Of a stretch of 64,000 nucleotides of DNA, positions 12,182-63,407 are shown one piece after another. The position numbers were made by a program, and so were the translations under genes. The stretch's first letter is position 1. Each line of letters begins with the position of its first letter. The stretch is from an uncultured Candidatus Saccharibacteria bacterium. GTDB lineage: Bacteria > Patescibacteriota > Minisyncoccia > UBA6257 > WO2-44-18. The stretch covers positions 14,788 through 78,787 of the forward strand of contig CAZWVU010000004.1 in assembly GCA_964637575.1 (NCBI GenBank). Direction: 5' to 3'. The notes below the pieces were generated by a model that worked only from the letters and a program-made list of their open reading frames with translations, was not told the origin of the DNA and ran no database searches.

Positions 12182-12679
12182 TCATTTCAAAACTTTCACG
12201 TCCAGCCACTTCACACCGAAGCGACGGGCTTCGGAGTGCGACGCCATACGGACATCGATGTGAGTGATGCCGCGCTTGGCGTCCTGGCGCATCGCGCCGC
12301 CGGTGTCGTCCACCTCGCGGAGGCCGACGCCGGGGATGTCCAGGCGGGTGTGATAGGGGAGCAGCTTTGGATCCGCTGCCACCCCGTCATACCGGCGCCC
12401 GTCCTTGCCGGTCGCCGTTCTCGCGAACTTCGACCAGCTGCCGCAGCAGATGTCGCAGGTGCAGTATGCCGTTACCAGCATTCTTACCGCGACATGTTCC
12501 GCGCGGTGTTCCGGAGCTTCCGGAGCAGCGATTTTTCCCGCCGCTGGAGTCGCCGATTGCGCCACCAGGCGCGGAGCCACTTCCATGCGTTGAATCTCAT
12601 GGTTCGCTTCCCTCCGTGCAACCCAGATGACCCCTGCTCCCATCATCAACACCAGGCCGATGACAGGAGAAGTCTTCAC
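12182..12679 (-). CDS. 3D-domain (MltA/YocH-like) cell-wall-associated protein
   Basis: N-terminal TM. CTCDICCGSW...TATG...VAADP...VDDTGGAM is a 3D domain. Confidence 0.7.
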   Translation of the reverse strand: MKTSPVIGLVLMMGAGVIWVARREANHEIQRMEVAPRLVAQSATPAAGKIAAPEAPEHRAEHVAVRMLVTAYCTCDICCGSWSKFARTATGKDGRRYDGVAADPKLLPYHTRLDIPGVGLREVDDTGGAMRQDAKRGITHIDVRMASHSEARRFGVKWLDVKVLK

Positions 12680-13101
12680 CGCTCATCCTCCAACACAATG
12701 ATCTGCATCTTCGTCCGCTTGAACGCCGTCACTTCCTCGTGCGTGCGCACGCGGAAGCACAACAGAAGTTCGCCGCGCTGCGCCAGCGCCTCTTGCAGGC
12801 GCCTGCCCGTGTCGTCGACGATTTTCTCGCCGATGCCGGGAAGATACACGCGCTTGCCGAAGGGGATCGCCTTCGGGTCGGCGGCGGCGCCGTCGAAGTG
12901 TTTTGCCCCGTCCTTTCCCGTGGCGGTTTTTCCGCCGGGATTGGAGTCGCCGCAGCACTTCGCGCACATGCAGTACGCGAACACCGTCGCTTCGCGGGCA
13001 TCTTCCTTCTTCTGTTTCTGCTGGGCCATTACCGTTCCGGAATAGCCGAAGCCGAACAGGAAACTCGGAACCAGAAGCACTACGAACGCAAATTTGGTCA
13101 C
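12676..13101 (-). CDS. 3D-domain protein (paralog of the preceding gene)
   Basis: Signal/TM N-terminus. CMCAKCCGDS...TATG...AAADP...VDDTG. Confidence 0.7.
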   Translation of the reverse strand: MTKFAFVVLLVPSFLFGFGYSGTVMAQQKQKKEDAREATVFAYCMCAKCCGDSNPGGKTATGKDGAKHFDGAAADPKAIPFGKRVYLPGIGEKIVDDTGRRLQEALAQRGELLLCFRVRTHEEVTAFKRTKMQIIVLEDER

Positions 13102-13656: not shown

Positions 13657-13992
13657 ATGGCGAAGATTCAAACCGAGGTGGGCGAGGTGAAGCGTGTATG
13701 CGCGCCGAGCTGCAAGAAGAATCTGAAGCATGAGCCGTGCGCATGCACCGAAAAAACGAAGGTGGTAACCAAGGTGGAGATTTTCGCGGTCTTCGAAGGA
13801 GTGCGGCGGTACCGGGCCTATTTCTCCCCGAATCCCAGAAATCCCGGAAGTCTGCCGAGGATTTCCAACAAGGAGCGCTTCAATGAGCAGGGCCAGCCGG
13901 AGGAAGTGAACGTCCAGATTCCGGACACCATCTACGTGGTCATGGCCCGCCGCGCCCTTGCCATCATCAACAGCGGAGCCCCTCAACTATGA
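13657..13992 (+). CDS. Hypothetical Cys-rich small protein
   Basis: GGAGGAGG RBS before the ATG at 13657. CAPSC...CAC cluster. No known domain. Confidence 0.45.
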   Translation: MAKIQTEVGEVKRVCAPSCKKNLKHEPCACTEKTKVVTKVEIFAVFEGVRRYRAYFSPNPRNPGSLPRISNKERFNEQGQPEEVNVQIPDTIYVVMARRALAIINSGAPQL

Positions 13993-14037
13993 GGGGCTTT
14001 TTCTTTCGCAACGCCCGACGCCGGCGCTCCTTCTCCT

Positions 14038-14156: not shown

Positions 14157-15434
14157 ATGCCGGCTAAAACGGTTAAAAAACCGACGGAAAATAAGGTGGA
14201 AGAAAAGCCCGCGAAGTCAGGCGGCGCTGACGCGGTAAAAGGCGAACTTTCCAAATCACCGAGCGAACTTTCCATCATCAAGCTGGTGGACAGCCTGGTG
14301 CAGGCGGCGTTTCTGGCGCGCTCTTCCGATATCCACATCGATCCCGGCGAAAAACAGATCGCGGTGCGTTTCCGGATCGACGGAGTTCTTCATGATTTTT
14401 ATGTCTTCCCGAAAGAAATTCAGTCCGAGGTAATCAGCCGCATCAAAGTCCTCTCAGGGCTTCGGACCGACGAACACCAGGCGGCCCAGGACGGACGTTT
14501 CCGGCTCACCTTCGACACGGTCAACGTGGATGTCCGCGTCTCCATCGCGCCGACCTACTATGGGGAAAATTGCGTGATGCGTCTGCTTGCCGATCAGGCG
14601 GCGTCATTCACGCTGGAGTCGCTGGGATTTGAAGGCCGCGACCTGGAAGTAGTGAAACGGAATATCAAAAAACCGTACGGCATGATTCTCGCCACCGGCC
14701 CGACCGGCTCCGGCAAGACCACCACGCTCTATACGATTTTGAAAATGCTCAACACGAAAGATGTTTCCATCATCACCATCGAAGATCCGGTGGAATATTC
14801 CATCGACGGACTGGAACAGATCCAGGTGAACTCGCGCACCGGACTGAGCTTCGCGAGCGGGCTCCGCTCCATTCTCCGCCAGGATCCGAACATCGTCATG
14901 GTGGGCGAGATCCGCGACGAGGAGACTGCCGGCATTGCGGTAAACGCGGCGCTGACCGGCCACCTGCTTCTTTCCACGCTTCACACGAACGACGCGGCAA
15001 CCACCCTGCCGCGCCTGCTGGATATGAAAATCGAGCCGTTCCTGATCGCTTCCACCGTTAACGTGGCGGTCGGCCAGCGGCTGGTAAGAAAAATCTGCCC
15101 CGACTGCAAAGTGAAAAAACCGGTCGGCCCGGATGAATTGAAGAGTCTCGCGAGCGTGATTCCCGCCAAAGTGCTGGACGCGGCGAAGACGTTTTACCAT
15201 GGCGAAGGATGCGCCAAATGCGACCACAGCGGCTACAAGGGGCGCATCGGCATCCATGAGGTGATGGAGATCGACGACGAGGTCCGGGTGGCCTTGATGA
15301 AGAGCGCCGACGCGGGAGAAATTAAAAAGATCGCTGTGAAAAACGGCATGACGACCATGGTGGAAGACGGATTCCGCAAAGCGGTGGACGGCGTTACCAC
15401 CATCGAAGAAGTATTGCGCGTCATTCATGAATAA
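14157..15434 (+). CDS. pilB: Type IV pilus assembly ATPase PilB/GspE family (short form)
   Basis: Walker A GPTGSGKTT. Asp box, His box and tetracysteine motif (CPDC...CAKC). ~425 aa. Confidence 0.85.
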   Translation: MPAKTVKKPTENKVEEKPAKSGGADAVKGELSKSPSELSIIKLVDSLVQAAFLARSSDIHIDPGEKQIAVRFRIDGVLHDFYVFPKEIQSEVISRIKVLSGLRTDEHQAAQDGRFRLTFDTVNVDVRVSIAPTYYGENCVMRLLADQAASFTLESLGFEGRDLEVVKRNIKKPYGMILATGPTGSGKTTTLYTILKMLNTKDVSIITIEDPVEYSIDGLEQIQVNSRTGLSFASGLRSILRQDPNIVMVGEIRDEETAGIAVNAALTGHLLLSTLHTNDAATTLPRLLDMKIEPFLIASTVNVAVGQRLVRKICPDCKVKKPVGPDELKSLASVIPAKVLDAAKTFYHGEGCAKCDHSGYKGRIGIHEVMEIDDEVRVALMKSADAGEIKKIAVKNGMTTMVEDGFRKAVDGVTTIEEVLRVIHE

Positions 15435-16506
15435 AACCTCGTTTCTTTCCGGCATCTTCACCCGCGTGCCGATCGAGGATCAGGTGCTTTTGGCGCGCCA
15501 CCTTGCCGTGATGGCGAAGGCCGGGCTGCCGCTCCTGGAAAGCGTGAAGATGATCCAGAAGGAGACGAAGAGCAAGAGTCTGAAAAAAATCCTTGATCAG
15601 GTGGTGGTGGACGTGAGCAACGGCCAGTTTCTTTCCGCGAGCCTGGAAAAGCATAAAAACGTGTTCGGCAATCTTTTCATCAACATTATCCGGGTGGGCG
15701 AGTCGGCGGGCATTCTCGCGGAAAACCTTAATTACCTCGCGGACGAGCTGAAAAAGAAGCGGGAACTGAAGAAAAAAGTGACCGGCGCGCTTATTTATCC
15801 GGCGGTGATTTTTGTGGCCACCTTCGGCATCACCGGATTGCTCACCGTGTTTATCTTCCCGAAAATCCTGCCGATTTTTAAAAGTCTGAACGTCGAATTA
15901 CCGATTACCACGCGGATCCTGATCTGGCTGAGCAACGCGCTCACGAATTACGGCCTGTATCTGATCCTGGGCCTACTGGCATTGCTTCTCGGAATTTATG
16001 GCATCTCGCTGATCCAGAAAGTCCGCTATTTTCTGCACTGGGTATTGCTGAAGCTTCCCATTTTCGGCAACATTTCCCGCAGCGTCAACCTGGCTAATGC
16101 CAGCCGCACGCTCGGCCTCACGCTCAAAAGCGGCGTCCGGGTGGTGGAGGCGGCGACGATCACCGCCGAGTCCCTCACCAACCTTGTCTACCAGCGGGAA
16201 TTACTGAAGGCGGCGGATCTGGTTCAGCGGGGAGAAGCGCTCGGACCGATTCTGGAAAAGCACCCCAAACTTTTTCCCTCGATTGTCACGCAGATGGTCG
16301 CGGTGGGCGAGGCGTCCGGCAATCTAAGCGAAACGCTGCTGTATCTTTCCGACTTCTACGAAGGCGAGGTGAATGAAATTACCAAAAATCTTTCCAACGT
16401 GCTTGAGCCGATTCTGATGGTAACGATGGGCATCGTGGTGGGATTTGTCGCGATTTCCATCATTACGCCGATTTATGAAATCACTTCAAGCATCAGCCCG
16501 CGCTAA
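15427..16506 (+). CDS. pilC: Type IV pilus inner-membrane platform protein PilC/GspF
   Basis: Two GspF repeats. TM segments. Overlaps the pilB stop by 8 nt. Confidence 0.85.
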   Translation: MNKTSFLSGIFTRVPIEDQVLLARHLAVMAKAGLPLLESVKMIQKETKSKSLKKILDQVVVDVSNGQFLSASLEKHKNVFGNLFINIIRVGESAGILAENLNYLADELKKKRELKKKVTGALIYPAVIFVATFGITGLLTVFIFPKILPIFKSLNVELPITTRILIWLSNALTNYGLYLILGLLALLLGIYGISLIQKVRYFLHWVLLKLPIFGNISRSVNLANASRTLGLTLKSGVRVVEAATITAESLTNLVYQRELLKAADLVQRGEALGPILEKHPKLFPSIVTQMVAVGEASGNLSETLLYLSDFYEGEVNEITKNLSNVLEPILMVTMGIVVGFVAISIITPIYEITSSISPR

Positions 16507-16939
16507 GGGGAAGGGCGCGGGGTTCACCCTGCTGGAAACGCTGCTCGTCGTGTCCATTCTGGCGCTGCTGTTCGCGATCGGGTTGCCGGTGGCGTTCAAT
16601 TTCTATCAGGCCTACCAGTTTGATTCGGAATACGAACTCCTTTTTTCCCTACTGGAACAGGCGCGCAATCAGGCGCTGACGAATTATCATGAGGCAAGCC
16701 ACGGTCTTTCCATTAACAGCGTGAACTTCGTGCTGTTTCAGGGTTCCAGTTTCGCCGCGCGCACCGCGGCGCAGGACAAAACCTTTCCCCGCAATTCCGC
16801 CATTACCATCGCCGGCCCCTCGGAAGTGGTCTTCAGCCAGCTGGACGGTACCGTGGCGTCGAGTACGTTTACGGTGAGCAACAGCTACAAAAGCCACGAT
16901 CTTTATTTGAATTCGGAGGGATCGGTGTATTCAAAATAA
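16475..16939 (+). CDS. Prepilin-type (pseudopilin/minor pilin) protein
   Basis: Class III signal KGAGFTLLETLLVVSILAL with Glu at +5. Confidence 0.7.
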   Translation: MKSLQASARAKGKGAGFTLLETLLVVSILALLFAIGLPVAFNFYQAYQFDSEYELLFSLLEQARNQALTNYHEASHGLSINSVNFVLFQGSSFAARTAAQDKTFPRNSAITIAGPSEVVFSQLDGTVASSTFTVSNSYKSHDLYLNSEGSVYSK

Positions 16940-18408
16940 TGAAAATTTTGAATTTAAAATTTACAATTTTAAAAAAAGAAGAAGGGCAGTCGCTTGTTGA
17001 GCTCCTGGTCGCGATCGGCATTTTCAGCATCGCGACGGCCGCCGGCTTCAGTTTATTTTTCGGCGGGCAGATCATCTCCACCGACAGCTCCAATATCAAT
17101 CTGGCCACGGATTACGTCCGGGAGGCGCAGGACGCGCTCCGCGCGATCCGCAACCGCAATTTTACCGAACTGCTCACCGACGGGCCGCACGGCTTTACCT
17201 TCAACGGATCGGAGTGGCTCCTGTCGTCCAGTACCTCTGACACGAAAGATGTGTTTACGCGGCAGGTGAACATCGCCAAGGGGGATTCGGATAACATCAA
17301 GATCGCCACCACCACCGTCACCTGGTCCAGCGCCGATCCCAGCCGGACCGAAAGCCTTACCTTCGTCGAGCAGTTTACCGACTGGGAAACGCCGCTCCAG
17401 AGCAGCTGCAAGTCGCAGGCGCTGACCGGCGACTGGACGAATCCGGTTACGCTTGGTTCGGCGGATATCGGTTCGGGAAATTCCGGGACGGACGTCGTCG
17501 CCAAAGGCAGTTACGCCTACGTGAGCGGTACCGCTTCTTCCGCGAGCAAGCCGGATATTTTTGTGTTTGACGTGAGCGCGCCCGCGGCGCCGGTGCAAAA
17601 GGCTTCACTCAACGTTACCAACGGAGGAATCAACGCGCTTTTCCTGAATGGCAATTACCTCTACGCGGCTTCGCCCGACAACAGCAAGGAATTTCTGGTC
17701 TTTGACGTGACTACCCCGACCAGCATCACTCTCAAGGGTTCGCTGGATTTAACCGGCAACGATGACGCGCTTTCGGTAGTGACGATCGGCACCACTGCGA
17801 TCGTCGGACGGCAAGGAAGTGCCGCCAAACAGATCTCGTTTATTGACGTGAGCGACCCGGCCAATCCGAGCGTGATCAAAGAATTCACCAGTCCCAATGG
17901 CGGCGATATTACCGATCTCGCCTACACGGACAACCGGCTCTACGCGACGAATTATCTTGCCAACGGCACCGCCGACATCCTGACATTCGATATCACCGAT
18001 CCCAGAAACCCCACCTATATCAGCAGTTACGATGTTCCCGCCACGGACAAGCCGCTTTCCGCGTACGTGGAAATCAAAGCGGGCGGCACCAATCTTCTGC
18101 TGGGCGACGGCGACAATGAACTGGTGGCGGTGGGGGCGACAACCACGAGCGGCATGTACGTCCGGAGCCGGGTGAACGTCGGGGGCAAGGTGAATGATAC
18201 CGTCTGCGTGCTGGGCAATCTCGCGTTTCTCGCCACCGATAACCAGAACGCCGAATTTACCGTGGTGAATGTGAATAATCTCAACAGCCTTTCCGTGTAC
18301 TCAACTCTGAATTACCCGAATTTCGCGACCGGAATCGATTTCGACAGCAACAAGGTCTACATGGCGGTGCGAAGCAACGACGCGCTGCGCATTATCACGT
18401 CGCAATAA
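16939..18408 (+). CDS. Large pilin-like protein: prepilin N-terminus fused to LVIVD-repeat beta-propeller (putative pilus tip adhesin)
   Basis: Leader ...EEGQSLVELLVAIGIF with E at +5. Four or more LVIVD-type repeats (IFVFDVSAPAAP, LVFDVTTPTS, ISFIDVSDPANPS, LTFDITDPRNPT). Confidence 0.65.
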   Translation: MKILNLKFTILKKEEGQSLVELLVAIGIFSIATAAGFSLFFGGQIISTDSSNINLATDYVREAQDALRAIRNRNFTELLTDGPHGFTFNGSEWLLSSSTSDTKDVFTRQVNIAKGDSDNIKIATTTVTWSSADPSRTESLTFVEQFTDWETPLQSSCKSQALTGDWTNPVTLGSADIGSGNSGTDVVAKGSYAYVSGTASSASKPDIFVFDVSAPAAPVQKASLNVTNGGINALFLNGNYLYAASPDNSKEFLVFDVTTPTSITLKGSLDLTGNDDALSVVTIGTTAIVGRQGSAAKQISFIDVSDPANPSVIKEFTSPNGGDITDLAYTDNRLYATNYLANGTADILTFDITDPRNPTYISSYDVPATDKPLSAYVEIKAGGTNLLLGDGDNELVAVGATTTSGMYVRSRVNVGGKVNDTVCVLGNLAFLATDNQNAEFTVVNVNNLNSLSVYSTLNYPNFATGIDFDSNKVYMAVRSNDALRIITSQ

Positions 18409-18413
18409 AACTT

Positions 18414-18908
18414 ATGCAGCCAAATTTAAAATTCCGGAACAGGGGGTTCACGCTTATCGAAACGCTTATCTATTCGGCGATCACCACGCTGTTCCTGACC
18501 GCCGCCCTCCTGATGATCTATCAGATGATCAGCAGTCTCCAGCGCGGGAAGAATGAACGGGAACTCGTGGAAAATCAGAAAGTGCTTGAGCAAAAAATTT
18601 ACTGGGCGCTTCAGAGCGTGTCCGCCATCAATTCGCCGGCGGCGAACGCCACTACCACCAGCCTGTCGGTCAACCGATTGAACTACGGCTCGAATCCCAT
18701 CCTGATTGACATGAACGGCGGCGTGGCGCGGATTACGAAAGGAGCGGGAGCGGCCACCCCGGTCACCAATACGTACTCGGATCTCCAGTCCATGACTTTT
18801 CACCAGTACAGCTGGGACGGCCGGCCGGCGATCCGCGTCCAGGCCACACTGGTGAACCACGTCGCGTCCACATCCGTGAGCATCGACACCACCATCATCA
18901 CCAAATGA
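18414..18908 (+). CDS. Prepilin-type minor pilin/pseudopilin
   Basis: RGFTLIETLIYSAITTLFL class III signal. Confidence 0.7.
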   Translation: MQPNLKFRNRGFTLIETLIYSAITTLFLTAALLMIYQMISSLQRGKNERELVENQKVLEQKIYWALQSVSAINSPAANATTTSLSVNRLNYGSNPILIDMNGGVARITKGAGAATPVTNTYSDLQSMTFHQYSWDGRPAIRVQATLVNHVASTSVSIDTTIITK

Positions 18909-19300
18909 CCATTTTAAATTTCCGGGGCGGCTATATCGCCATCACCACTTCCATAATATTATCCATCGTCATTTTGGCGATCGCGGCGGCGCTCGGCAGC
19001 AATCATCTGTTTACCCGGATGAACGTTTCCGATTTTGACGACAAGCAGATGAGCCTGAGTGACGCCCGGTCCTGTCTGGACGAAGCCCGCCTGAAACTTT
19101 CGGATGATTCCAGCTATGCCGGCAATGAAACATTCAGCGTCGGGAGCGACCAGTGCACGATTGTATCCGTCAGCACCTCCGGCTCCAACAAAGTAATTGA
19201 GGCGCAGGCGGCAGTAAGCGGCGCTACCACCGATCTCCAGCTTACGGTGAAGACAGTTGATTTATCCACAGTTTCCTTAGAAGAGCTTCCCAATTTTTGA
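18905..19300 (+). CDS. Putative minor pilin-like protein (no canonical GFxxxE)
   Basis: Hydrophobic N-terminal helix. Located within the pilin gene run. Confidence 0.4.
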   Translation: MTILNFRGGYIAITTSIILSIVILAIAAALGSNHLFTRMNVSDFDDKQMSLSDARSCLDEARLKLSDDSSYAGNETFSVGSDQCTIVSVSTSGSNKVIEAQAAVSGATTDLQLTVKTVDLSTVSLEELPNF

Positions 19301-19306
19301 TATAAT
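19298..19306 (+). promoter_or_regulatory. Extended -10 element (TGATATAAT) upstream of pilA
   Basis: TGnTATAAT match ~45 nt before the pilA start. Confidence 0.4.
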
Positions 19307-19349
19307 TGGATTATTCGCTATTTGAAGCGGGAAAGGTCGTGTAACAATA

Positions 19350-19826
19350 ATGAACAACAACATGAAAAAGAACTCAGGTTTTACCCTCATTGAATTGCTC
19401 GTGGTAATCGGAATTATCGCGATTTTGGCAGGTGTGGTAATCGTAGCGTTGAACCCGGCCCGGCAATTCGCCCAGGCTCGGAACACCCAGCGCTCGGCAA
19501 ACGTGAACGCCATCTTGAACGCAGTCGGTCAGCGTCTGGCTGACAACCGCGGCACATGGCCCGTAGTTGCCGGCGATTGCGCCGCCCTCCCGACCGCGAC
19601 GACGACGATCTCCAGTTCGCAGTACAACATCTACAAGTGCATTGTGCCGAACTACATGAGCAGCCTCCCCGTAGATCCTTCGAACGGTACTCTTACCGAT
19701 GCGACGGATTACGACAGCGGCTATGAGATCGTGAAGGACACGACGACCGGACGGGTTACCGTGAACGCCAAGTACGCGGAAGCCATTGCCGGACTTGCCT
19801 CCACGACGATTTCCGTTTCACGCTAA
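19350..19826 (+). CDS. pilA: Type IV major pilin (copy 1)
   Basis: SGFTLIELLVVIGIIAILAGVV prepilin signal. 158 aa. Confidence 0.85.
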   Translation: MNNNMKKNSGFTLIELLVVIGIIAILAGVVIVALNPARQFAQARNTQRSANVNAILNAVGQRLADNRGTWPVVAGDCAALPTATTTISSSQYNIYKCIVPNYMSSLPVDPSNGTLTDATDYDSGYEIVKDTTTGRVTVNAKYAEAIAGLASTTISVSR

Positions 19827-19832
19827 ATTCCC

Positions 19833-20297
19833 ATGAATAAACAATCAGGTTTTACCCTCATTGAATTGCTCGTGGTAATCGGAATTATCGCGATTTTGGC
19901 AGGTGTGGTAATCGTAGCGTTGAACCCGGCCCGGCAATTCGCCCAGGCTCGGAACACCCAGCGCTCGGCAAACGTGAACGCCATCTTGAACGCAGTCGGT
20001 CAGCGTCTGGCTGACAACCGCGGCACATGGCCCGTAGTTGCCGGCGATTGCGCCGCCCTCCCGACCGCGACGACGACGATCTCCAGTTCGCAGTACAACA
20101 TCTACAAGTGCATTGTGCCGAACTACATGAGCAGCCTCCCCGTAGATCCTTCGAACGGTACTCTTACCGATGCGACGGATTACGACAGCGGCTATGAGAT
20201 CGTGAAGGACACGACGACCGGACGGGTTACCGTGAACGCCAAGTACGCGGAAGCCATTGCCGGACTTGCCTCCACGACGATTTCCGTAAGCAGATAG
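19833..20297 (+). CDS. pilA: Type IV major pilin (copy 2, identical mature protein)
   Basis: ~440 nt identical to copy 1. Differs only in the leader and in synonymous codons of the last 3 residues. Confidence 0.85.
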   Translation: MNKQSGFTLIELLVVIGIIAILAGVVIVALNPARQFAQARNTQRSANVNAILNAVGQRLADNRGTWPVVAGDCAALPTATTTISSSQYNIYKCIVPNYMSSLPVDPSNGTLTDATDYDSGYEIVKDTTTGRVTVNAKYAEAIAGLASTTISVSR

Positions 20298-20310: not shown

Positions 20311-20336
20311 AAAAAACCGCTTAGGCGGTTTTTTGG
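20311..20336. terminator. Bidirectional Rho-independent terminator between pilA2 and the GT2 gene
   Basis: AAAAAACCGC-TTAG-GCGGTTTTTT. Confidence 0.75.
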
Positions 20337-20338
20337 TT

Positions 20339-21019
20339 TTAGGAGAAAAGTCCGTGCTTCACTATGACCCAGAGCGCCCGGAGGCCGTCAGTCCAGCGGA
20401 TTTTTTTGCCCTCTTCAAACGTGCGCCCATAGTACGAGACGCCGATTTCATAAAACCGCCAGCGTTTTTTACCGAGCTTAATCGTCACTTCCGGTTCGAA
20501 TCCAAAATCTTCTTCAACGAGCCGGACCGACCGGATTGCCTCGCGGCGGAATACTTTATAGCAGGTTTCGATATCGGTAAGGTTGAGGTTGGCAAAAAGA
20601 TTGGTGAGAAAAGTGATGAACCGGTTGGCGAGATAATGGCCGAAGAGCATCACGCGGTGCGGCGAAGACCCGACAAAGCGGGAGCCGTACACCACGTCCG
20701 CCTTTCCTTCCGCGATCGGCTGGATCAGGCGGGGATAATCCGCCGGGTCATATTCCAGATCGGCATCCTGGATAAGGATGATATCGCCGGTCGCCGCGGC
20801 GAGTCCGGTGTGAAGCGCCGCGCCCTTGCCGCGGTTCATTTCGTGACGGAGGACGGTAGCGTTGGGCGCCTGGTAGCCGCGGAGAAACCCGCGCGTGCCG
20901 TCGGTGGAGCAGTCATCCACAATAATAATTTCATCCGGTTTCTGTTCCTGCACTTTTTTCAGGATGAGGGGCAGGGTTTTTTCCTCGTTATAGACGGGAA
21001 TGATTATGGAAAGCTTCAT
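20339..21019 (-). CDS. GT2 glycosyltransferase (polyprenyl-phosphate sugar synthase, DPM1-like)
   Basis: LSIIIPVYNEE, IIIVDDCSTDGT and DADLEYDP (DxD) motifs. Confidence 0.85.
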   Translation of the reverse strand: MKLSIIIPVYNEEKTLPLILKKVQEQKPDEIIIVDDCSTDGTRGFLRGYQAPNATVLRHEMNRGKGAALHTGLAAATGDIILIQDADLEYDPADYPRLIQPIAEGKADVVYGSRFVGSSPHRVMLFGHYLANRFITFLTNLFANLNLTDIETCYKVFRREAIRSVRLVEEDFGFEPEVTIKLGKKRWRFYEIGVSYYGRTFEEGKKIRWTDGLRALWVIVKHGLFS

Positions 21020-21140
21020 CCCGCACATAACAAAGAGTGCGTTTCACGCAATCTTTGCATAAGATCATGCCGCGACTTTTCCTTGGGTTGATTTTGCATA
21101 AATGATTATAAGGTTAATTGCTCTTTGTTATGTGTGGGAT
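21018..21140. repeat. Imperfect 20-bp inverted repeat pair (ATCCCGCACATAACAAAGAG at 21018-21037 and CTCTTTGTTATGTGTGGGAT at 21121-21140) with an 83-bp non-coding spacer
   Basis: 19/20 reverse complement. Shares the core ATCCCRCACATAAC with the GIY-YIG-flanking repeat at 4228/4505. Confidence 0.85.
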
Positions 21141-21143: not shown

Positions 21144-22703
21144 TTACAGTATTTTGTATACCACCGTGTCCGGATTTTCAAACACGTTCCGGAAGGCCGG
21201 CGCGGTGGAAAGGTATTTGTTGAGCGAAGGATTCCGTGATTTTTCCAGCACGATATAAGAAGCATGGAAGTCATTTTTGAGCGCCTGATAGGTGCTTTCC
21301 ACCTGGCCGGCGGTGCAGCGCACTTCGGCGCAGGTGTAGCCGGTAGCCGCGTCTATCGAGTAGAAATGGGTCTTCCAATACAGCTGGGGATTGAAGTCAT
21401 ATTCAAAGATCGGATCCATGCCGTTGATGTAGTAGTTGTTCGGATCCCAGAAAAACAGTTCGCCAAACCGGTCCCAGTGGATGTTGAAAACGATTTCGCC
21501 GGGTTTCGTGTGCTGGCCAAGCCATTCGCCGGCTGGCTGCATCAGGAGGGGATGGAAGGCGTTGGTAACATAGGTATCAAAACGGTAGATATTCTTGAAC
21601 GGCGCGATAATCAGGGCGATTATGGCGGCGAGGACCGCCAGCGTGTGGGAAGCCGAGCGGCTGTTTTTTTGCTGATAGAAAAGAGTGGCCAGCAGCGCGA
21701 TAAAGATACTACCGAATCCGACGAAGAGTTCGTTGGAACGCCGGGCGATTCCGAAGGTCATCGCCGCGAAGATCAGGGTAAGGAGTCCGCTGCTCCAGAC
21801 GGCAACCCGGATTTCCGGGCGCAATTCCCTGAACCTTCTGCTTTTAATCAAAAACAAGAGAAACCCGGCGGCCAGTATCAGAAGGATGGTAATAGGAATA
21901 AGCTGATCGACGAAATTTTCCCAGACAAAAGGCGTCAATTCCCTGCCGAAACGGAGTGGCAGCATCTGTTGTTTCACCGACATCAGCTTTACCACCTGAA
22001 TGACCGCAAGTTTCAGCGTGCCGACGGGGTTGGGACGGGCGAGCCAGCCGGCCAGTACGCCTGTGCCGGCCGCGAGCAGCGACCGCCAGCCGGCGCCGCG
22101 CCGCGAAAGAACATGAAAGAGCGCCACGGCCAACGCCACAATCCCCGCGACCCAGATAAGCGAAATATGAATCCAGGCGAAGACCGCTGAAATCGCCGCG
22201 ATTGGCCAGAGTCCGCGGAGTGAGACGGGATTTTCCACCAGGAAAGAAAAGAGCAGCAGGGTAAGTCCGAGCGACAGGGGATGCGGACGGAGCATGGCCA
22301 GCCGGTACATCAGATCGGCGGTGATGACGGCGAAGATCATTGTCCAGAACAGCGGCCAGCGGACGCGGAGGCGCTTGAATGCCCAGAAGGCGAGAAGGAG
22401 CGAGGCGATCGTCACGGCAAAGGTGCCCCAGTAGATCCCGTATATCAGAAGATGGAACAGCGTGAAGGGGATCAGGAGGATATGGAATCCATACCAGATA
22501 TCGGAAGCATAGGTTTTGATTGAAGAATCCTGCGTCCAGGGAAAGGCAGTCTGGAACGGGCCGTTGACGCGGTATTCCCAGGCGTGCCGAATATGGTAAA
22601 ACCCGTCCGTGTCGGCGATATTCGGGAAGAGCTGGGTATGAAGCAGCAGCGCGAACAGGGTGATGACGGCAAAGGCGGCGAGCCATTCATACTTTTTAAA
22701 CAT
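21144..22703 (-). CDS. Polytopic membrane protein, putative GT-C-fold glycosyltransferase (paralog A)
   Basis: 519 aa with >10 TM segments. Conserved blocks DGFYHIRHA, FPWTQ, DIWYGFHILLIPFT and C-terminal YYINGMDPIFEY, all shared with 23177..24727. Confidence 0.55.
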   Translation of the reverse strand: MFKKYEWLAAFAVITLFALLLHTQLFPNIADTDGFYHIRHAWEYRVNGPFQTAFPWTQDSSIKTYASDIWYGFHILLIPFTLFHLLIYGIYWGTFAVTIASLLLAFWAFKRLRVRWPLFWTMIFAVITADLMYRLAMLRPHPLSLGLTLLLFSFLVENPVSLRGLWPIAAISAVFAWIHISLIWVAGIVALAVALFHVLSRRGAGWRSLLAAGTGVLAGWLARPNPVGTLKLAVIQVVKLMSVKQQMLPLRFGRELTPFVWENFVDQLIPITILLILAAGFLLFLIKSRRFRELRPEIRVAVWSSGLLTLIFAAMTFGIARRSNELFVGFGSIFIALLATLFYQQKNSRSASHTLAVLAAIIALIIAPFKNIYRFDTYVTNAFHPLLMQPAGEWLGQHTKPGEIVFNIHWDRFGELFFWDPNNYYINGMDPIFEYDFNPQLYWKTHFYSIDAATGYTCAEVRCTAGQVESTYQALKNDFHASYIVLEKSRNPSLNKYLSTAPAFRNVFENPDTVVYKIL

Positions 22704-23176: not shown

Positions 23177-24727
23177 TTATTTTACTCGGTACACAAGTTC
23201 ATTTTCAGTGGCGAACACTTTTTCAAAATGCGGATCGGCGGCGAGATTCGCGGCAAAACCGGCATTGCGGTCCAGCTCCACCATCACGTATTTCGCGCGA
23301 AAGTCGCCGGCGATGGCTTCATACAGCGATTTCCCGTCTTGGGGCGTACAGGGGAGCGCCGGGCAGGTGTACGGCTTGCCGCCGACGGCAAGGAAAAAAT
23401 TCTCAAAATAAAGTTTCGGATTGTAGGCGTATTCAAAGATCGGATCAGCGCCGTTGATGTAATAATCGCGATCATTCCAGAAGAAGAGCATCGGGAAGGA
23501 ATCCCAGGAAGTGTGAAATACAGTATCGCCGGGGCGGGAATGATCCTTCAGCCACAATGAAGCAGTTCTCAACTGGTCAGCGCCGCCCGCCGGCTCGGCG
23601 GCGTAGGTGGTATAGAGATAGGAATGCCAGGTCAGCATCACCAACAAAAGGCAGCCGAACACCAGCGACACCGCCGGTTTTTTAGAATGGTGCCACCATG
23701 AAAAAAGCGACGCGGCGAGTATCACCGCGAAAAGGGCGAAAAAATCGGTGGCGCGGCGGCCGAGCGTGAAGCCGAGCGCCAGAAAGACAATCGACAGGCA
23801 GGAGGCAGACCAGACAAGACGTTTCATTTCGGAAGGAGCGGCGGAGAATTTTTTGGATTTGAGCGCGAATGCCAGAATCCCGATGGCGATCAGCCAAACG
23901 GCAAGGATGGGAATGAGTTGGGTGAGGATGACGGTGCCGTTCAGCGGCCGGAGTTCGTCGCCGGAAAGAAGCGGGACGCCAGCCCGCTTCGCGGCGATCA
24001 GCTCAAAGAGCTGAATCCACAGGATCTTCGCGGCGCCGAACGGGTTGGGGCGGGAGAGCCAGCCAAGCAGCGTGCCCGCGATCACGGACGCCGGCATCTG
24101 CCAGAAATGTTTTTTCTCCACCCGCGCAGTAACGATTGCGACCACTGCGGTAACGAGCGGGGCAATCCAAAAAAAAGCGAGGTGCAGAAAAGGGATCGCG
24201 AACGCGAGCGCCGCAAGCAGGAGCCAGGATTTTTTAGTGGCCGGCTTGGCCTGAACGGAGCCGAATGGCCTGATAAGGAAAGAAAAAATCAGGGCGAGAA
24301 ACGCGATGGTCAGTGTGTTCGGCCGGAGCTGGTTCAACCGGAAGAGCAGATTCGGCGTGGCGAAATAAAAAAGAAGCGTCCAGAAAAACGGCCAGCGGAT
24401 TTCGTGGCGTTTCAGGACGAAATAAAATCCGAGCAGGGCCAGTGCCGCGAAGAGTGTCGCCGCCATTTTTACGCCAAGCGTGAGATCGGAAAAGACCGTG
24501 AAAGGGATCAGCAAAAGATGAAAGCCGTACCAGATATCGGCCTGATATGTCTTCCAGACGGAGAATTGCGTCCATGGGAAATCGGTACGGAATATCCCGT
24601 TCTGCGCGTAAACTGCCGCGTGCGTGATGTGATAAAACTGGTCCGGTTCAATCAATTGTCCCGGACCGAACACAAACACCGCGGCAAGCGCCAGGAAAAG
24701 TAAAAACACCGGCAGCCAGAATTTCAT
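23177..24727 (-). CDS. Polytopic membrane protein, putative GT-C-fold glycosyltransferase (paralog B)
   Basis: 516 aa. DQFYHITHA, FPWTQ, DIWYGFHLLLIPFT, YYINGADPIFEY. Confidence 0.55.
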   Translation of the reverse strand: MKFWLPVFLLFLALAAVFVFGPGQLIEPDQFYHITHAAVYAQNGIFRTDFPWTQFSVWKTYQADIWYGFHLLLIPFTVFSDLTLGVKMAATLFAALALLGFYFVLKRHEIRWPFFWTLLFYFATPNLLFRLNQLRPNTLTIAFLALIFSFLIRPFGSVQAKPATKKSWLLLAALAFAIPFLHLAFFWIAPLVTAVVAIVTARVEKKHFWQMPASVIAGTLLGWLSRPNPFGAAKILWIQLFELIAAKRAGVPLLSGDELRPLNGTVILTQLIPILAVWLIAIGILAFALKSKKFSAAPSEMKRLVWSASCLSIVFLALGFTLGRRATDFFALFAVILAASLFSWWHHSKKPAVSLVFGCLLLVMLTWHSYLYTTYAAEPAGGADQLRTASLWLKDHSRPGDTVFHTSWDSFPMLFFWNDRDYYINGADPIFEYAYNPKLYFENFFLAVGGKPYTCPALPCTPQDGKSLYEAIAGDFRAKYVMVELDRNAGFAANLAADPHFEKVFATENELVYRVK

Positions 24728-24819: not shown

Positions 24820-25566
24820 ATGAACACAAATATGAAAAATCTTCTCATGGCGTTCGCGTTTAGCGTGGCGGTAACGGCGGTAGTCGCAGTCGGTTTGCCG
24901 GTGGCATTTGCCGAGGCGGACTCGGCGACGAGCACGCCGGCAACCCATCAGCTGGCGCAGATGTCGGTGAATGTCGAACGGAACGGTAATATAAAACTGG
25001 TCGGACAATTGACCGCCGTCAGCGGCACTAATCTTACGGTGCAGAGCTGGGGAGGCGCCTGGGCGGTGGATGCTTCGGCCGCGAAGATCGTCCGCCGGTT
25101 TAACGGCGAATCCAATTTTGCCGAGTATCAGGTCGGTGACACGGTGACGGTCTGGGGTGACGCTTCCGCGAGCGGCCTTACCGTCAAGGCGAAGATGGTC
25201 AAGGATGAATCCATCCAGAAGCGGGGCGCTGACTTCATCGGAGTTATTTCCGGAGTCAATGCATCCAGCACGACCAGCTTCACGCTGACTGTGAAGAACC
25301 GCGGCGCGCTGGCGATTACGGTGAATGCGGATACCAAAATCACCATCAACGGCCAGTCCGCGTCTTCTACTGCGGGTTTGACGAACGGCATGTACGCGAG
25401 CGTTACCGGAGTTTGGGATACCACCAACTCCACGGTCATCGCGGCCACGGTGAACGCCAGGACCGCGGCGAGCGTGCTTGATGACGCGAATCCGAGCTTC
25501 CTGCAAAAGATATTCCGCTTCTTCGGAGGCAGGGGCAAGGGAGAAGGCAAGGGAAATCAGGAATAG
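24820..25566 (+). CDS. Secreted repeat protein (DUF5666-like beta repeats)
   Basis: Signal peptide MKNLLMAFAFSVAVTAVVAVGLPVAFA. Repeated VGDTVTVWGD / TVKNRGALAITVNADTKITING segments. Confidence 0.55.
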   Translation: MNTNMKNLLMAFAFSVAVTAVVAVGLPVAFAEADSATSTPATHQLAQMSVNVERNGNIKLVGQLTAVSGTNLTVQSWGGAWAVDASAAKIVRRFNGESNFAEYQVGDTVTVWGDASASGLTVKAKMVKDESIQKRGADFIGVISGVNASSTTSFTLTVKNRGALAITVNADTKITINGQSASSTAGLTNGMYASVTGVWDTTNSTVIAATVNARTAASVLDDANPSFLQKIFRFFGGRGKGEGKGNQE

Positions 25567-26267: not shown

Positions 26268-26432
26268 CCAGCCGGAATATTTTCGAGGGAATATCTCGGA
26301 GCCGATTCGGCTGGCCTGGCGCATGGTTGCGCCAGGGCCAAGGGTGCCTTGCGAATCGGCGAGAGCTAAGTGGTGCCGTTGCGCCGCCGGAGCGCAACGG
26401 ACACCCGGTTCCCGAGAAGATGTTCCGGCTGG
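26268..26432 (-). ncRNA. Copy 4 (minus strand) of the GGGAACCGGGUGUCC structured element, with an expanded second hairpin
   Basis: Reverse complement reads GGGAACCGGGTGTCCGTTGCGCTCCGGCGGCGCAACGGCACCAC...GCCGATTCG[insert]CGAATCGGCTCCGAG. Closing stem TTCCCGAGAAGATGTTCCGGCTGG / CCAGCCGGAATATTTTCGAGGGAA. Confidence 0.55.
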
Positions 26433-26500
26433 TTGAGGTGGCAGGAGAAGAATGGAAGACAAGCCCACCTTGTAAGAAATATGCTATTATATCGTCGTAT

Positions 26501-27031
26501 ATGAGGGACTTGGAAAAAGAATTTTTAAAATCCTATGACCAGTACGCCGACCCGATCTTCCGCCACTGCTACTTCCGGGTTTTTAACCGTGAACGGGCGA
26601 AGGACCTGATGCAGGAAACGTTCATGAAAACCTGGGAATACATGCAGAAAGGAGAGGTAAAAAATGTCCGGGCGTTTCTCTACCGGGTGGCGAATAACCT
26701 CATCATCGACAATTCCCGCCGTAAGCAGGAGCAGTCGCTCGACCGGCTGCAGGAGGAAGGATTCGATCCGGGACAAGACACGAGAGACAGGCTGACCAAT
26801 TTTCTGGAAGGAGGCGAGGTGATCAAAGTTCTCAATAAACTGAATCCGAAATACCGGGAAGTGATCCAGCTGCGGTATATCGACGATCTCTCGCCGAAAG
26901 AAATCGCGGAGACGATCGGGGAGACCGAGAACAACGTTTCCGTGCGACTTCATCGCGGTATCAAGGAGCTCCGGGATATCCTGGAGTATGCGGAAAATCC
27001 GCTTCGGGAGCGCAATCAAAAACATGGATAA
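26501..27031 (+). CDS. ECF-type RNA polymerase sigma factor (sigma-70 family regions 2 and 4)
   Basis: Region 2 YRVANNLIIDNSRRK. Region 4 LNPKYREVIQLRYIDDLSPKEIAETIGETENNVSVRLHRG. Confidence 0.8.
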   Translation: MRDLEKEFLKSYDQYADPIFRHCYFRVFNRERAKDLMQETFMKTWEYMQKGEVKNVRAFLYRVANNLIIDNSRRKQEQSLDRLQEEGFDPGQDTRDRLTNFLEGGEVIKVLNKLNPKYREVIQLRYIDDLSPKEIAETIGETENNVSVRLHRGIKELRDILEYAENPLRERNQKHG

Positions 27032-28049
27032 TCTTATCAAAAATTTAATCAAACGGGCGAAAGGAATTTCGTTGAACGGTGTTGAGAGGGCGGAAATCCG
27101 CCATCGTCTTTCTGCGTTCGCGCGCGGGCATGAGGCCCTGGGCGCCGCATCCCGGACTCCGTGGCTGATCCGCATACTGAAGCCGGCGCTGGCCGGAGTG
27201 ATTCTTGCCGGCCTGGCGGGCGGCGGAGTTTCCTTTGCGGCTGAAAATTCTTTGCCGGGCGATCCGCTCTATCCTGTGAAGATCAATGTTATCGAACCAG
27301 TACAGGGATGGTTCGCCGTTTCTTCTGAAGCCAGAGCCGATTGGGAGGCGAAGCTGGCGGAACGGCGGCTGGAAGAAGCCGAGAAGCTCGCGGCCGAGAA
27401 CCGCCTGGACGATGAGAAGCGCGCCGAAGCCGAGTCGGAGTTCCAGAAACACGCGGAAAAAGCCAAAGAGCATATCGCCGCGCTGGAAGCCGGCGCCGAT
27501 CTCAATGCTGCCTCCAATATCAGCTCGCGCATCGAGGCGTCGTTCAAGGCGCACGGAAAAATTTTGCAGAAACTGATGCGCGGCGGGGAAGTCGGCGCCA
27601 AAGCTGACGCAGAGGCGGACATTGCTTCCACCACCCGGGCGGCGATAGAAGCGAGAATTTCCGCCGAGGAAGGTCCGGACGAGCAGTCGGCCGCCGAAGG
27701 GAAGGAGGGAGCGGCGCAGAGCAAGATCCAGGAAGTGCAGCAGTTCCTGTCCGGACTGGACGCGAGTACGACCGCGCAGGCGAACGCGCGTCTGACCGAG
27801 GCGGATACCGTATTCGCGCAGGGACAGGCGGAGCTTTCGGCCGGGCATTCTGGCGCGGCCTTCGTGCTCTTCCAGCAGGCGATGCGGATCGCCCAGGAAG
27901 CGAAATTACTGATCGAAGCGCATAAAAATTTTGAGATTGAATTGAAGCTCAACGGCAATTTCCATCTCAAAGGCGACCATGAAGATCAGCGCGCATCCGA
28001 AGGGGAGGGCAGTGCCAAAACCGAGGCGGAACTTGACTTGAATTTGTAG
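27025..28049 (+). CDS. Putative anti-sigma factor with DUF5667 domain and coiled-coil C-terminus
   Basis: Overlaps the sigma gene stop. Single TM. PGDPLYPVK motif. Long Ala/Glu-rich helical region. Confidence 0.55.
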
Positions 28050-35231: not shown

Positions 35232-35882
35232 ATGAAGGAAATATTACGAAAACCGCTGGTCTGGCTGAATATTATTTCCCTTACATTTGTGGGCATTTTG
35301 ATCGCGGGTCTGGCGTTCGGCTGGAATAATCCGGTCGCGGCGCCGGCGGGGGGAAGCGGGGCGATCAGTGTAAGTCCGGCCGGAAACGTGGGCATCGGCA
35401 ACAGTGTGCCGGGCGCGAAACTGGATATTGCCGGCAACGTGCAATGGAGCGGCACGCTTCTGAACGGAGCGGTGCCATGGGCAAGGCTGTCGGCGTTTCC
35501 GGCCGCCTGTCCCGCCGGGCAGTTTGTCAGTCAGATCGGAGCCGGCCTTGTCTGCGGGGTGCCGCCATCTTCGAGCGGCGTCACCGGCAGCGGCACCATA
35601 GGAAATATTGCTGCGTGGACGGGAGTGTCATCGCTCGGGAATCTGACTGGAACCGTCACGTTTCCCGGAGATATCAATGTCCCCGGTCTTATCACGGGAT
35701 CCCAGACCACCGTTTCCGGACCTCAAGCCTTCAATTCTTCCGGCTACTGGGGAGGCGCGGCCTTTGGCACTACCGGCGGAGCCTGGTCCAAAGTCTGCCC
35801 GGCCGGGCAAATTATGGTGGGCATAGGCCAGGCAACCAACGGAAGTCTCCCGACGCCGTACATCATTTGCGCGCCTCTGTAA
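35232..35882 (+). CDS. Membrane-anchored surface protein, tail-fibre-like N-terminal motif (paralog 1)
   Basis: N-terminal TM followed by GWNNP...APAGGSGAI...GNVGIG...KLDIAGN. Gly/Thr-rich C-terminus. Confidence 0.55.
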   Translation: MKEILRKPLVWLNIISLTFVGILIAGLAFGWNNPVAAPAGGSGAISVSPAGNVGIGNSVPGAKLDIAGNVQWSGTLLNGAVPWARLSAFPAACPAGQFVSQIGAGLVCGVPPSSSGVTGSGTIGNIAAWTGVSSLGNLTGTVTFPGDINVPGLITGSQTTVSGPQAFNSSGYWGGAAFGTTGGAWSKVCPAGQIMVGIGQATNGSLPTPYIICAPL

Positions 35883-35909: not shown

Positions 35910-36539
35910 ATGAACAATCTATTGAAAAAGCCGTTATTTTGGACCAACGTCGCTGCAGTAACGTTAACCGGACTGGTAATCGCCGGGGTGGCGTTCGGGT
36001 GGAACAGTCCTCTGGCGGCTCCGACGGGCGGAAGCGGGGCGATTGTGACGGACCTATCCGGTAACGTGGGAATCGGTATTGCGGCGCCAACTCAGAAGCT
36101 GGATGTCGCGGGCAATGTCAAAGGAACCGGGCTGTGCATCGGATCCGACTGCCGCGCAGCGTGGCCGACATTTTCCGGCATCACCGGCCTGGGGACGGCA
36201 AATTATCTTCCAAAGTTTACCAGCGGCAATGCAATTGGCAATTCGCAGGTATTTGATAATGGTACGAACGTTGGTATCGGTAATGCCGCTCCAACGCAGA
36301 AGCTGGACGTGACCGGTAATGCCAACATTAGTGGCACGATCCGCGGTGCCACATACGGCTTTGGCGGAATCTACGTGAACCACGTCGGCGTTGGTGGATT
36401 TACCACGTGCTCGGTGGCCAATCCGTTCACGAATGCCTGTAACTGTCCGACAGGTTTTACGGCGAAGCTTTTTTCCTATACGGGTAGCGCTTTGAACGGC
36501 AGCATTAACGATAATCCTACTTACTTTTGCTGGAAATAA
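35910..36539 (+). CDS. Membrane-anchored surface protein (paralog 2)
   Basis: Same N-terminus (KKPLFWTNVAAVTLTGLVIAGVAFGW...GGSGAI...GNVGIG...KLDVAGN). Second NVGIGNAAPTQKLDVTGN repeat. Different C-terminus. Confidence 0.55.
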   Translation: MNNLLKKPLFWTNVAAVTLTGLVIAGVAFGWNSPLAAPTGGSGAIVTDLSGNVGIGIAAPTQKLDVAGNVKGTGLCIGSDCRAAWPTFSGITGLGTANYLPKFTSGNAIGNSQVFDNGTNVGIGNAAPTQKLDVTGNANISGTIRGATYGFGGIYVNHVGVGGFTTCSVANPFTNACNCPTGFTAKLFSYTGSALNGSINDNPTYFCWK

Positions 36540-36543: not shown

Positions 36544-37263
36544 ATGAACAATCTTTTTAAGAAACCTTTATTTTGGACCAACGTCGCCGCGGTAACCTTG
36601 ACCGGGCTGGTGATCGCCGGGGTAGCGTTCGGGTGGACCAATCCGAATGTGACGCCCGCCGGCGGCGGGGGAGCGATAACTGTTGATGCCAGTGGCAACG
36701 TGGGAATTGGCGGCCTGCCGAACGCGCTGGCCAAGCTTCGTGTGGCCGGCAACCTGCTGGTTGATAGCGGTTTTGGAATCACGCTTGGCGGAATAACCAG
36801 GACGACCTGGCCTTACGGCGGCTCGGGAGTCTTCTGTTCCACTGCGACAGGTTATCTGGATTGCTATATCGCGGGAGTGGACAAGGTCTACACCTTGACC
36901 GCCACTGCCAGTGGCGGTCCCATCACCCCATCGGTCACCTCGGTCAGCACTCCCGGCGTCATGCCGTATTCCAATATGGGTTGCAGTACTTCTACCGGAT
37001 ACCTCGACTGCTACGTTAACGCGACAGACAAGGTATACACCTTAACTGCCATTACCAGCGGCGGCCCGACCACTCCGTCAGTCACTTCTGTCAGCACCGT
37101 GGGCGTGCGACCGCTCTCCGGAAGTAAATGCACCTCCGCCACATACCTTGCGTGTTACATTACCGCCCCCGATAAAGTGTACACGTTGTCCGCTACCAGC
37201 AGCGGCGGCCCGATCACTCCGTCAGTTACTTCCGTCAGCACGGTGGGCGTGATGGTTTATTAG
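36544..37263 (+). CDS. Membrane-anchored surface protein (paralog 3) with three ~45-aa tandem repeats
   Basis: N-terminus nearly identical to paralog 2. C-terminus holds 3x repeats (TGYLDCY...DKVYTLTA..SGGP.TPSVTSVST.GV). Confidence 0.55.
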   Translation: MNNLFKKPLFWTNVAAVTLTGLVIAGVAFGWTNPNVTPAGGGGAITVDASGNVGIGGLPNALAKLRVAGNLLVDSGFGITLGGITRTTWPYGGSGVFCSTATGYLDCYIAGVDKVYTLTATASGGPITPSVTSVSTPGVMPYSNMGCSTSTGYLDCYVNATDKVYTLTAITSGGPTTPSVTSVSTVGVRPLSGSKCTSATYLACYITAPDKVYTLSATSSGGPITPSVTSVSTVGVMVY

Positions 37264-59060: not shown

Positions 59061-59135
59061 GGTGCCTATAGTTTAGTGGTAAAACACCGCTCTGTGGCAG
59101 CGGATTCGAGGGTTCGATTCCCTCTAGGCACCCCA
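59061..59135 (+). tRNA. tRNA-His (GTG) with encoded G-1 and CCA
   Basis: G-1 pairs with C73. Acceptor GTGCCTA/TAGGCAC. Anticodon loop CTGTGGC. T arm GAGGG-TTCGATT-CCCTC. Confidence 0.85.
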
Positions 59136-61898: not shown

Positions 61899-61912
61899 TC
61901 GATTTGACCGAC

Positions 61913-63058: not shown

Positions 63059-63204
63059 TCACCACTTTTTCTTACTACACAGCGTAATTGATGTAGTAAA
63101 AGTATTCCAAACCACAAAGTCATTATGACAAAATATGCCATCTTTGACAACGAAAATCTGAAGCGGTAAAATACAAATAAGTAATTTTATCGGGTACGAC
63201 TTTT

Positions 63205-63399: not shown

Positions 63400-63407
63400 A
63401 AAAGATT

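Follow-up and report, generated by a model that had tools for sequence, protein, structure and literature searches.

A pilin with a C-terminal LVIVD beta-propeller as a candidate tip adhesin of a compact, Parcubacteria-type type IV pilus

Introduction

What does a beta-propeller do in a compact type IV pilus locus when it is fused to the N-terminal part of a pilin? The question is raised by a 64-kb stretch of contig CAZWVU010000004.1 from an uncultured patescibacterium, referred to below as the window, in which the open reading frame (ORF) at 16939-18408 encodes a 489-residue protein in the midst of pilus genes (14157-20297). A first-pass annotation of the window had described this protein as a candidate tip adhesin and had mentioned host attachment and DNA uptake as tasks proposed for such pili. 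We favour, with moderate confidence, the reading that the locus represents a self-contained type IV pilus operon of monoderm character and of the Parcubacteria/Paceibacteria type, i.e. belonging to the candidate phyla radiation (CPR), in which a minor-pilin set of the order H-I-J-K primes assembly and the propeller acts as a binding module displayed at the tip. The protein thus stands as a candidate tip adhesin, backed by its GspI/PilV-class-like pilin module, by a K pilin devoid of Glu5 encoded two genes downstream and by precedents in the literature (PMC8179133, PMC11623550). DNA uptake via the propeller domain is disfavoured on account of its uniformly acidic character.

Architecture of the propeller pilin

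The leader and mature N-terminus of the 489-residue protein read MKILNLKFTILKKEEG↓QSLVELLVAIGIFSIATAAGF (the arrow marks the predicted cleavage site) and conform to the pattern of a class III prepilin, i.e. a short basic leader with Gly at position -1, Glu at position +5 and ca. 20 hydrophobic residues. The segment KKEEG↓QSLVE is kept across the family. In a 43-sequence alignment the consensus is G↓QSLxE, with G-1 found in 36/38, E+5 in 41/42 and the atypical Gln+1 in 34/39 of the members; the class III leader of the first-pass annotation is thereby corroborated and no defect of it became apparent. Pfam searches, judged by the curated gathering scores, place both halves of the protein above threshold: N_methyl (PF07963) is matched with 22.3 bits (cut-off 21.2) and LVIVD (PF08309) with 33.1 bits (cut-off 20.2). 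Among the family members LVIVD is matched by 43/43 (best E 1.4e-33) and N_methyl by 30/43 at E <= 0.1.

The polypeptide, encoded on the forward strand, is divided into the leader (aa 1-16; 16939-16986), helix alpha1 (aa 17-73; 16987-17157), the sheet of the pilin head (aa 74-150; 17158-17388) and a seven-bladed LVIVD beta-propeller (aa 157-489; 17407-18405). An AlphaFold2 model calculated with the family alignment as input has a mean predicted local distance difference test score (pLDDT) of 88.3 over the whole protein and consists of a 55-residue helix (19-73), a beta-sheet (82-147), a short linker of low confidence (151-153) and 29 propeller strands (157-487) that make up seven blades of four strands each and a C-terminal strand closing the ring; the N-module modelled in isolation reaches a pLDDT of 90.5. 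The model suggests a pilin "lollipop" joined to a seven-bladed beta-propeller, the latter being predicted with confidence. The LVIVD propeller recognized earlier is confirmed in kind, and its supposed minimum of four repeats is to be replaced by seven blades. Foldseek searches against the PDB returned seven-bladed WD40 propellers as top matches with E values of ca. 1e-10, such as beta-TrCP (E 7e-11), the highest TM-score normalised to the target being that of Ciao1 (0.78). The propeller domain of PilY1/PilC (PF05567) and RCC1 were not matched in the 489-residue protein at E <= 1, nor in any of the 43 members, and PilY1 is absent from the Foldseek top 50.

Two cysteines, Cys157 in the linker and Cys423 in blade 6, covary perfectly, both being present in 28 members and neither in 15, which implies a predicted disulfide bond between the linker and the propeller. 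At 54077-54973 (+) of the window, a gene for a DsbA-like thioredoxin is found adjacent to a DsbB gene. This gene pair, a disulfide-forming system, fits the conserved Cys pairs predicted in PilA, in the K-class pilin and in the propeller pilin, and together with the covarying cysteines it fits an extracytoplasmic protein.

A database search yielded more than 250 homologues, nearly all from metagenome-assembled genomes of Patescibacteria and almost all 460-495 residues long. Where named, they are called "hypothetical", "prepilin-type N-terminal cleavage/methylation domain", "PilV" or "outer membrane adhesin-like". Several relatives carry the same pilin module followed by two to more than five LVIVD propellers in tandem, for example P0160 (792 aa), P0181 (939 aa) and P0124 (1998 aa), each of them with a G↓F/S-x-L-V-E leader. 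At E <= 1e-30, an exhaustive search with the family profile moreover retrieves 14,123 representative proteins, and many of the matches with the best scores are giant multi-propeller surface proteins. Giant multi-propeller proteins of 2-7 kaa (thousands of residues) that are matched by the propeller profile number in the thousands.

The conserved cassette and the class of the pilin module

Related loci were collected by scanning one genome per GTDB species with 13 closer sequences. The resulting 41 loci belong, by title, to Harrison-, Brenner-, Colwell-, Lipton- and Uhrbacteria and Paceibacterota, along with some apparently mislabelled bins; the comparison with CPR pilus loci suggested in the first-pass annotation reveals the same locus recurring in CPR/Parcubacteria genomes. 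As judged by tblastn with the eight proteins of the window locus, the order pilB-pilC-H-I(propeller)-J-K, usually followed by pilA, is found in all 41 loci wherever the positions lie on the contig. In one subclade pilA is located upstream on the opposite strand, and in 3/41 loci a second, PilT-like T2SSE paralogue is found downstream. The conserved unit is a seven-gene cassette, since the flanking genes are common only to the closest genomes. The neighbouring genes for PGK, DHH, RNase H, 3D-domain proteins, GT2 and large membrane proteins were considered as parts of the system and rejected for the same reason.

The propeller pilin occupies the second position of the H-I-J-K set, and I-class models are the best-matching class for its pilin module. 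Within the N-terminal 152 residues of the family members, ComGE is matched by 15/28, GspI by 8, XpsI by 7 (best E 4.9e-7) and PilV by 7. All of these matches stay below the curated I-class cut-offs, GspI for instance reaching 17.9 bits compared with the 44.35 required. Based on these profiles, the pilin module appears to resemble, at least in part, the GspI/PilV/ComGE class.

The last member of the set, encoded by 18905-19300, starts with Gly followed by a hydrophobic helix, lacks Glu5, has no N_methyl match and contains two invariant cysteines and a YxGNE motif. In the related loci the corresponding gene product reads G↓Y/F-I-A/L-I-T/S, without Glu5 in any of them; PilX_N is matched by 1/21 K-family members (1.9e-5). 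We assign it tentatively to the GspK/PilX-like K class, mainly on the basis of the missing Glu5 and the gene position. In type II secretion systems (T2SSs) and type IVa pili (T4aP), GspK/PilX-type subunits devoid of Glu5 cap a tip complex that is formed with the I and J subunits. By analogy, the propeller would ride on a core subunit of the tip complex, because its carrier is I-class-like and a Glu5-less K pilin is encoded two genes downstream.

The pilus operon

The locus comprises eight ORFs on the forward strand, and an ORF check bore out all of them with the extents given in the first-pass annotation, which had listed pilB, pilC, four prepilin-type genes and two pilA genes. Class III leaders, as judged from Pfam/NCBIfam matches and leader reading, are carried by five of the eight; the fourth prepilin-type gene is the K gene described above, whose product is without Glu5 and to which that label therefore applies only with this reservation. 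The genes are tightly packed: the overlap amounts to 8 nt between pilB and pilC and to 32 nt between pilC and the H gene, TAATG is common to the H and I genes and ATGA to the J and K genes, and intergenic gaps of 49 and 6 nt precede the first and the second pilA gene, respectively. As the genes overlap or abut and terminator hairpins lie on both flanks, the region 14157-20297 is a single, tightly coupled operon. Its 5' boundary is marked by a terminator-like hairpin (13975-14000, +; an 11-bp stem with 6 GC pairs, then a T-run) which ends the upstream gene, and its 3' boundary by the hairpin AAAAAACCGC-TTAG-GCGGTTTTTT (20311-20334), read from the sequence as a bidirectional terminator between pilA2 and a convergent gene.

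The extension ATPase PilB (14157-15434; 425 aa; T2SSE, E 5.5e-125) lacks the N-terminal GspE-N domain, its alignment to the GspE and PilB models beginning at model positions 96 and 168, respectively, and contains a CxxC...CxxC motif. It scores 519 bits with the GspE model and 488 bits with the PilB model, both under the equivalog cut-offs, and 249 bits with ComGA. The start of pilB coincides with that of the gene call on the Logan contig L001. The platform protein PilC (15427-16506; 359 aa; PilC/GspF) carries two T2SSF domains (E 5.3e-54). The putative H-class minor pilin (16475-16939; GspH/ComGD-like; leader ...GAG↓FTLLE) is assigned on account of its conserved position and of matches which are all sub-threshold (ComGD 1.9e-7, GspH 4.3e-4, Pfam GspH 0.048). 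The modular pilin at the I position (16939-18408; 489 aa), recognized by N_methyl, LVIVD and the AlphaFold2 model, is followed by the J-position pilin (18414-18908; leader RNRG↓FTLIE), which is matched by N_methyl with 25.8 bits, has weak ComGE/ComGF/GspJ matches and likewise keeps its position, and by the putative K-class pilin (18905-19300; 131 aa; G↓YIAIT).

The first of the two major pilin genes, pilA1 (19350-19826; leader MNNNMKKNSG↓FTLIE; 2 Cys), is matched by N_methyl with 36.8 bits and is GspG-like at a sub-threshold level. An extended -10-like element, TGATATAAT (19298-19306, +), lies 44 nt 5' of it and is a possible internal promoter for the major pilin. The second gene, pilA2 (19833-20297; leader MNKQSG↓FTLIE), was recognized by profile match and copy comparison as a tandem copy encoding an identical mature pilin. 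The two copies share ca. 445 nt of identical DNA and differ in their leaders; their ends, GTT TCA CGC TAA and GTA AGC AGA TAG, are synonymous in the last three codons and the stop. An assembly artefact was considered as the origin of the duplication and rejected, as the copy ends carry synonymous but different codons. The pair looks like true paralogues under gene conversion by which the same mature pilin is kept. Two adjacent pilA copies are found in 0/41 related loci. The Logan contig L001 (5.4 kb) breaks exactly at pilA.

Further components were searched for within the window. In Pfam scans of ca. 55 window ORFs, a few short ORFs lying outside the scan, no Peptidase_A24 (prepilin peptidase), PilM, PilN, PilO or PilQ was detected, in agreement with the first-pass annotation. 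A second T2SSE ATPase or PilT was not found in the window by tblastn with PilB, nor was a class III leader outside the pilus locus by a regular-expression scan of all six frames. The canonical diderm T4aP set (PilM/N/O/P/Q, PilT, PilD) is thus not found in the window. The pilus system is compact and monoderm-like.

Neighbouring genes

The gene convergent with pilA2 encodes a family 2 glycosyltransferase (GT2; 20339-21028, -), beyond which two paralogous polytopic membrane proteins of ca. 517 aa without Pfam match are encoded (21144-22703 and 23177-24727, -). Only the 7-8 closest genomes retain this group next to pilA, and a role in glycosylation of the pilin or the envelope is possible. Just upstream of the operon, two adjacent small paralogues with Cys-rich motifs (12182-13101, -) are found, the first with a weak, sub-threshold 3D-domain match (MltA-like, E 5.8e-4); the pair is kept at this place only in the two closest genomes.

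Other genes lie further away. Genes for a DUF5666 protein (24820-25566), for an ECF-type sigma factor (26327-27031) and, overlapping the latter, for a DUF5667 protein (26988-28049) are grouped closely and may constitute a sigma/anti-sigma module beside envelope genes. Three tandem paralogues without Pfam family (35232-35882, 35910-36539 and 36544-37263, +) share the N-terminal membrane anchor KPLxWxNxxxxTxxGxxIAGxAFGW and GNVGIG...KLDxAGN motifs and may be surface proteins. At 59062-59135, tRNA-His slightly overlaps a gene for a large serine recombinase (59124-60803, -; Resolvase, Recombinase and Zn_ribbon_recom); from there to the end of the window (59062-64000) the GC content drops from ca. 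0.55 to 0.40-0.43 and a DUF5659 gene is present. This segment is probably an integrated mobile element or prophage.

Comparison with known systems

In InterPro, LVIVD corresponds to the entry IPR013211. Raynaud et al. (2021, PNAS, PMC8179133) defined modular pilins by the combination of the N-terminal IPR012902 motif with a domain not specific for type IV pili and reasoned that they serve as adhesins exposed at the tip. Proteins in which IPR012902 is combined with one, two, five or as many as twelve IPR013211 hits are already contained in their Dataset S1, including a protein with 12 IPR013211 copies from Candidatus Falkowbacteria (CPR). The 489-residue protein falls under this definition with its N_methyl and LVIVD domains, and it shares with the modular pilins the N-terminal class III pilin module and a bulky module not specific for pili, for which the authors predict tip exposure and ligand binding. 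In contrast to it, the characterised modular pilins are from Firmicutes and bear vWA or lectin modules, e.g. PilB (vWA) and PilC (lectin) of S. sanguinis. The H-I-J-K cassette and the I-class carrier found here are not described by Raynaud et al. (PMC8179133).

A closer precedent within the Patescibacteria is PilX2 of TM7x (Nanosynbacter lyticus, Saccharibacteria type IV pilus T4P-2), which a 2024 bioRxiv preprint (PMC11623550) describes as a minor pilin bearing an RCC1 propeller of seven blades and proposes as tip adhesin; its deletion halves host binding, and filament extrusion persists. Both proteins are minor pilins with a C-terminal seven-bladed beta-propeller. However, PilX2 is built of RCC1 repeats and has no predicted PilD-type signal peptide, whereas the 489-residue protein combines LVIVD repeats with a canonical G-1/E+5 leader, and the TM7x loci encode PilM/N/O, which are lacking in the cassette of the latter. 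On the description given for PilX2, the two proteins are best regarded as analogues and not as demonstrated orthologues.

In T2SSs and T4aP, four minor pilins prime and cap the fibre, and in the latter the PilY1 propeller is presented at the tip. The present locus resembles PilY1/PilC with FimU-PilV-PilW-PilX of T4aP and GspH-I-J-K of T2SSs in possessing a four-member minor-pilin set with one member devoid of Glu5, and its gene order H-I-J-K is that of gspH-I-J-K. The seven-bladed propeller is likewise a common element; its display at the tip is shown for T4aP with PilY1 and would be expected here. Unlike the 489-residue protein, in which the propeller is fused covalently to a putative I-class pilin, PilY1 is a non-pilin with a PF05567 propeller, so that the former is not a member of the PilY1 family but may work like it. 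In a further difference from T4aP and T2SSs, the locus encodes neither a secretin nor PilMNO, which is consistent with a monoderm envelope.

The LVIVD repeat family was defined in cell-surface proteins (Adindla et al. 2004, PMC2447325), with which the 489-residue protein shares the repeat family, a predicted extracellular location and a predicted propeller of four strands per repeat. Those proteins, however, rely on Sec signals or on anchoring of the S-layer type, and giant multi-propeller forms are frequent among them, whereas a single propeller is found here on a pilin. No study of the LVIVD-propeller pilin family was retrieved by literature searches that combined LVIVD with pilin, or Parcubacteria with pilin and beta-propeller.

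Proposed mechanism and alternative explanations

Consistent with these findings we propose the following scenario: PilB and PilC would assemble PilA filaments, the assembly being primed by the four-member minor-pilin set H-I-J-K, in which the 489-residue protein would be the I-class (GspI/PilV/ComGE-like) member with a C-terminally grafted seven-bladed LVIVD propeller. Its leader would be cleaved after Gly16 by a prepilin peptidase encoded elsewhere, and helix alpha1 with Glu5 would dock into the tip complex, the K subunit devoid of Glu5 lying above it. The propeller with its ca. 330 residues appears too bulky for the filament body and would be exposed at the pilus tip, where it may bind a ligand, most likely a host-cell or surface ligand of protein or glycan nature. 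The propeller pilin would thereby be the covalent counterpart of the role which PilY1 plays non-covalently in T4aP.

Several observations weigh against this scenario. The I-class assignment of the pilin module rests on sub-threshold profile matches and gene order, PDB sequences searched with profiles of the H, J, K and I-module alignments were matched only in generic N-terminal pilin helices, by which no class was resolved, and a Foldseek search of the PDB with the predicted N-module yielded neither a solved pilin nor any significant match (best E 0.27). Neither the prepilin peptidase nor PilT nor PilM/N/O was found in the window. Global diversifying, i.e. host-driven, selection is not evident, because the overall variability of the propeller does not exceed that of the pilin head, the mean pairwise identities being 41% and 37.5%, respectively. 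Finally, a strongly conserved core subunit could serve mainly a structural or priming role.

The last point leads to the main alternative, which we consider unlikely, namely that the propeller is a purely structural, PilY1-like priming cap which starts or stabilises assembly or blocks retraction, and which binds the minor pilins and the machinery instead of an external ligand. The variability of the propeller, which is not above that of the pilin head, the lack of PilT in the window and the fact that the propeller pilin is the only I-class pilin in a cassette kept across 41 loci would suit such a cap. The conservation around the ring is informative in both directions. Blades 1, 2 and 7 and the C-terminal strand RSNDALRIITSQ are highly conserved (identity to the window protein 52-53% in blades 1-2 and 85% in the strand), as expected for a cap, but blades 4-5 are markedly variable (32-34%); the alignment would thus be compatible with docking through a conserved side and exposure of a variable one. 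The same pilin module carries from two to more than five propellers in tandem in some relatives, which is hard to explain by a cap, and this multiplication is easier to understand by binding than by priming. Moreover, PilX2 of TM7x is dispensable for filament extrusion.

Still less probable is a membrane-anchored surface protein, whose pilin-like helix would remain uncleaved, or be cleaved but not assembled, so that the propeller would sit on the envelope without any filament. LVIVD was after all defined in archaeal and bacterial cell-surface proteins (PMC2447325), giant multi-propeller proteins are frequent among the top scorers of the 14,123 profile matches, and Gln+1 is atypical for a pilin. 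However, the family retains G-1 and E+5, and the importance of Glu5 lies in the assembly of filaments and not in anchoring; furthermore, the gene is always embedded among minor-pilin genes and translationally coupled.

For a DNA receptor, by which the propeller of a competence-type pilus would capture extracellular DNA for uptake, we see very little room. The dependence of CPR bacteria on scavenged nucleotides, the weak matches of several minor pilins to ComG-family models and the lack of the N-terminal domain in PilB, as in ComGA, could be quoted in its favour. However, the propeller is acidic in 43/43 members, with isoelectric points of 4.05-4.89 and net charges of -10 to -40, which makes non-specific DNA binding unlikely; PilB scores far higher with the GspE and PilB models than with ComGA, the gene order with the major pilin in last place is unlike that of comG, and neither comEA nor comEC is found nearby. 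A pilus-displayed enzyme, i.e. a hydrolase or oxidase acting on the host envelope or on environmental substrates, is equally improbable, as the weak similarity to the Sphingobium phosphotriesterase 5hrm (Foldseek rank 5; HMM E 0.047) and the SBP56 matches of 16/43 members (best E 4.7e-5) are all sub-threshold and generic to propellers and no conserved His/Cys metal-ligand set is apparent among the invariant columns, even though peptidase-bearing modular pilins are included in the list of Raynaud et al. (PMC8179133).

Beyond the preferred reading of a tip-displayed binding module, one may speculate, as a possibility we hold rather doubtful, that the PilY1 function has been built directly into the Parcubacteria pilus: the I-class propeller would both prime assembly and set host recognition in episymbiosis, with the conserved blades 1, 2 and 7 docking on the J and K subunits and the hypervariable blades 4-5 determining host specificity. 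If true, the tandem-propeller relatives would represent the same device in a form of longer reach or of multivalent binding.

Implications

The idea of a pilin onto which a module for binding is grafted, with LVIVD and propellers of CPR bacteria among the examples, is already published, and the gain is in this respect incremental. The present analysis adds the H-I-J-K cassette and its conservation, the putative I-class carrier, the covarying cysteines of a predicted disulfide, the acidic surface and the way in which conservation differs from blade to blade. These findings would extend the modular-pilin idea to a module grafted on a core subunit of the tip complex and not on an accessory pilin. 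The seven-gene cassette is usable as a marker and comparable across lineages, and the propeller, as a small soluble domain, is amenable to expression and ligand tests. As most Parcubacteria are uncultured, the family offers a concrete and widely conserved candidate for a molecule by which these bacteria may contact their hosts.

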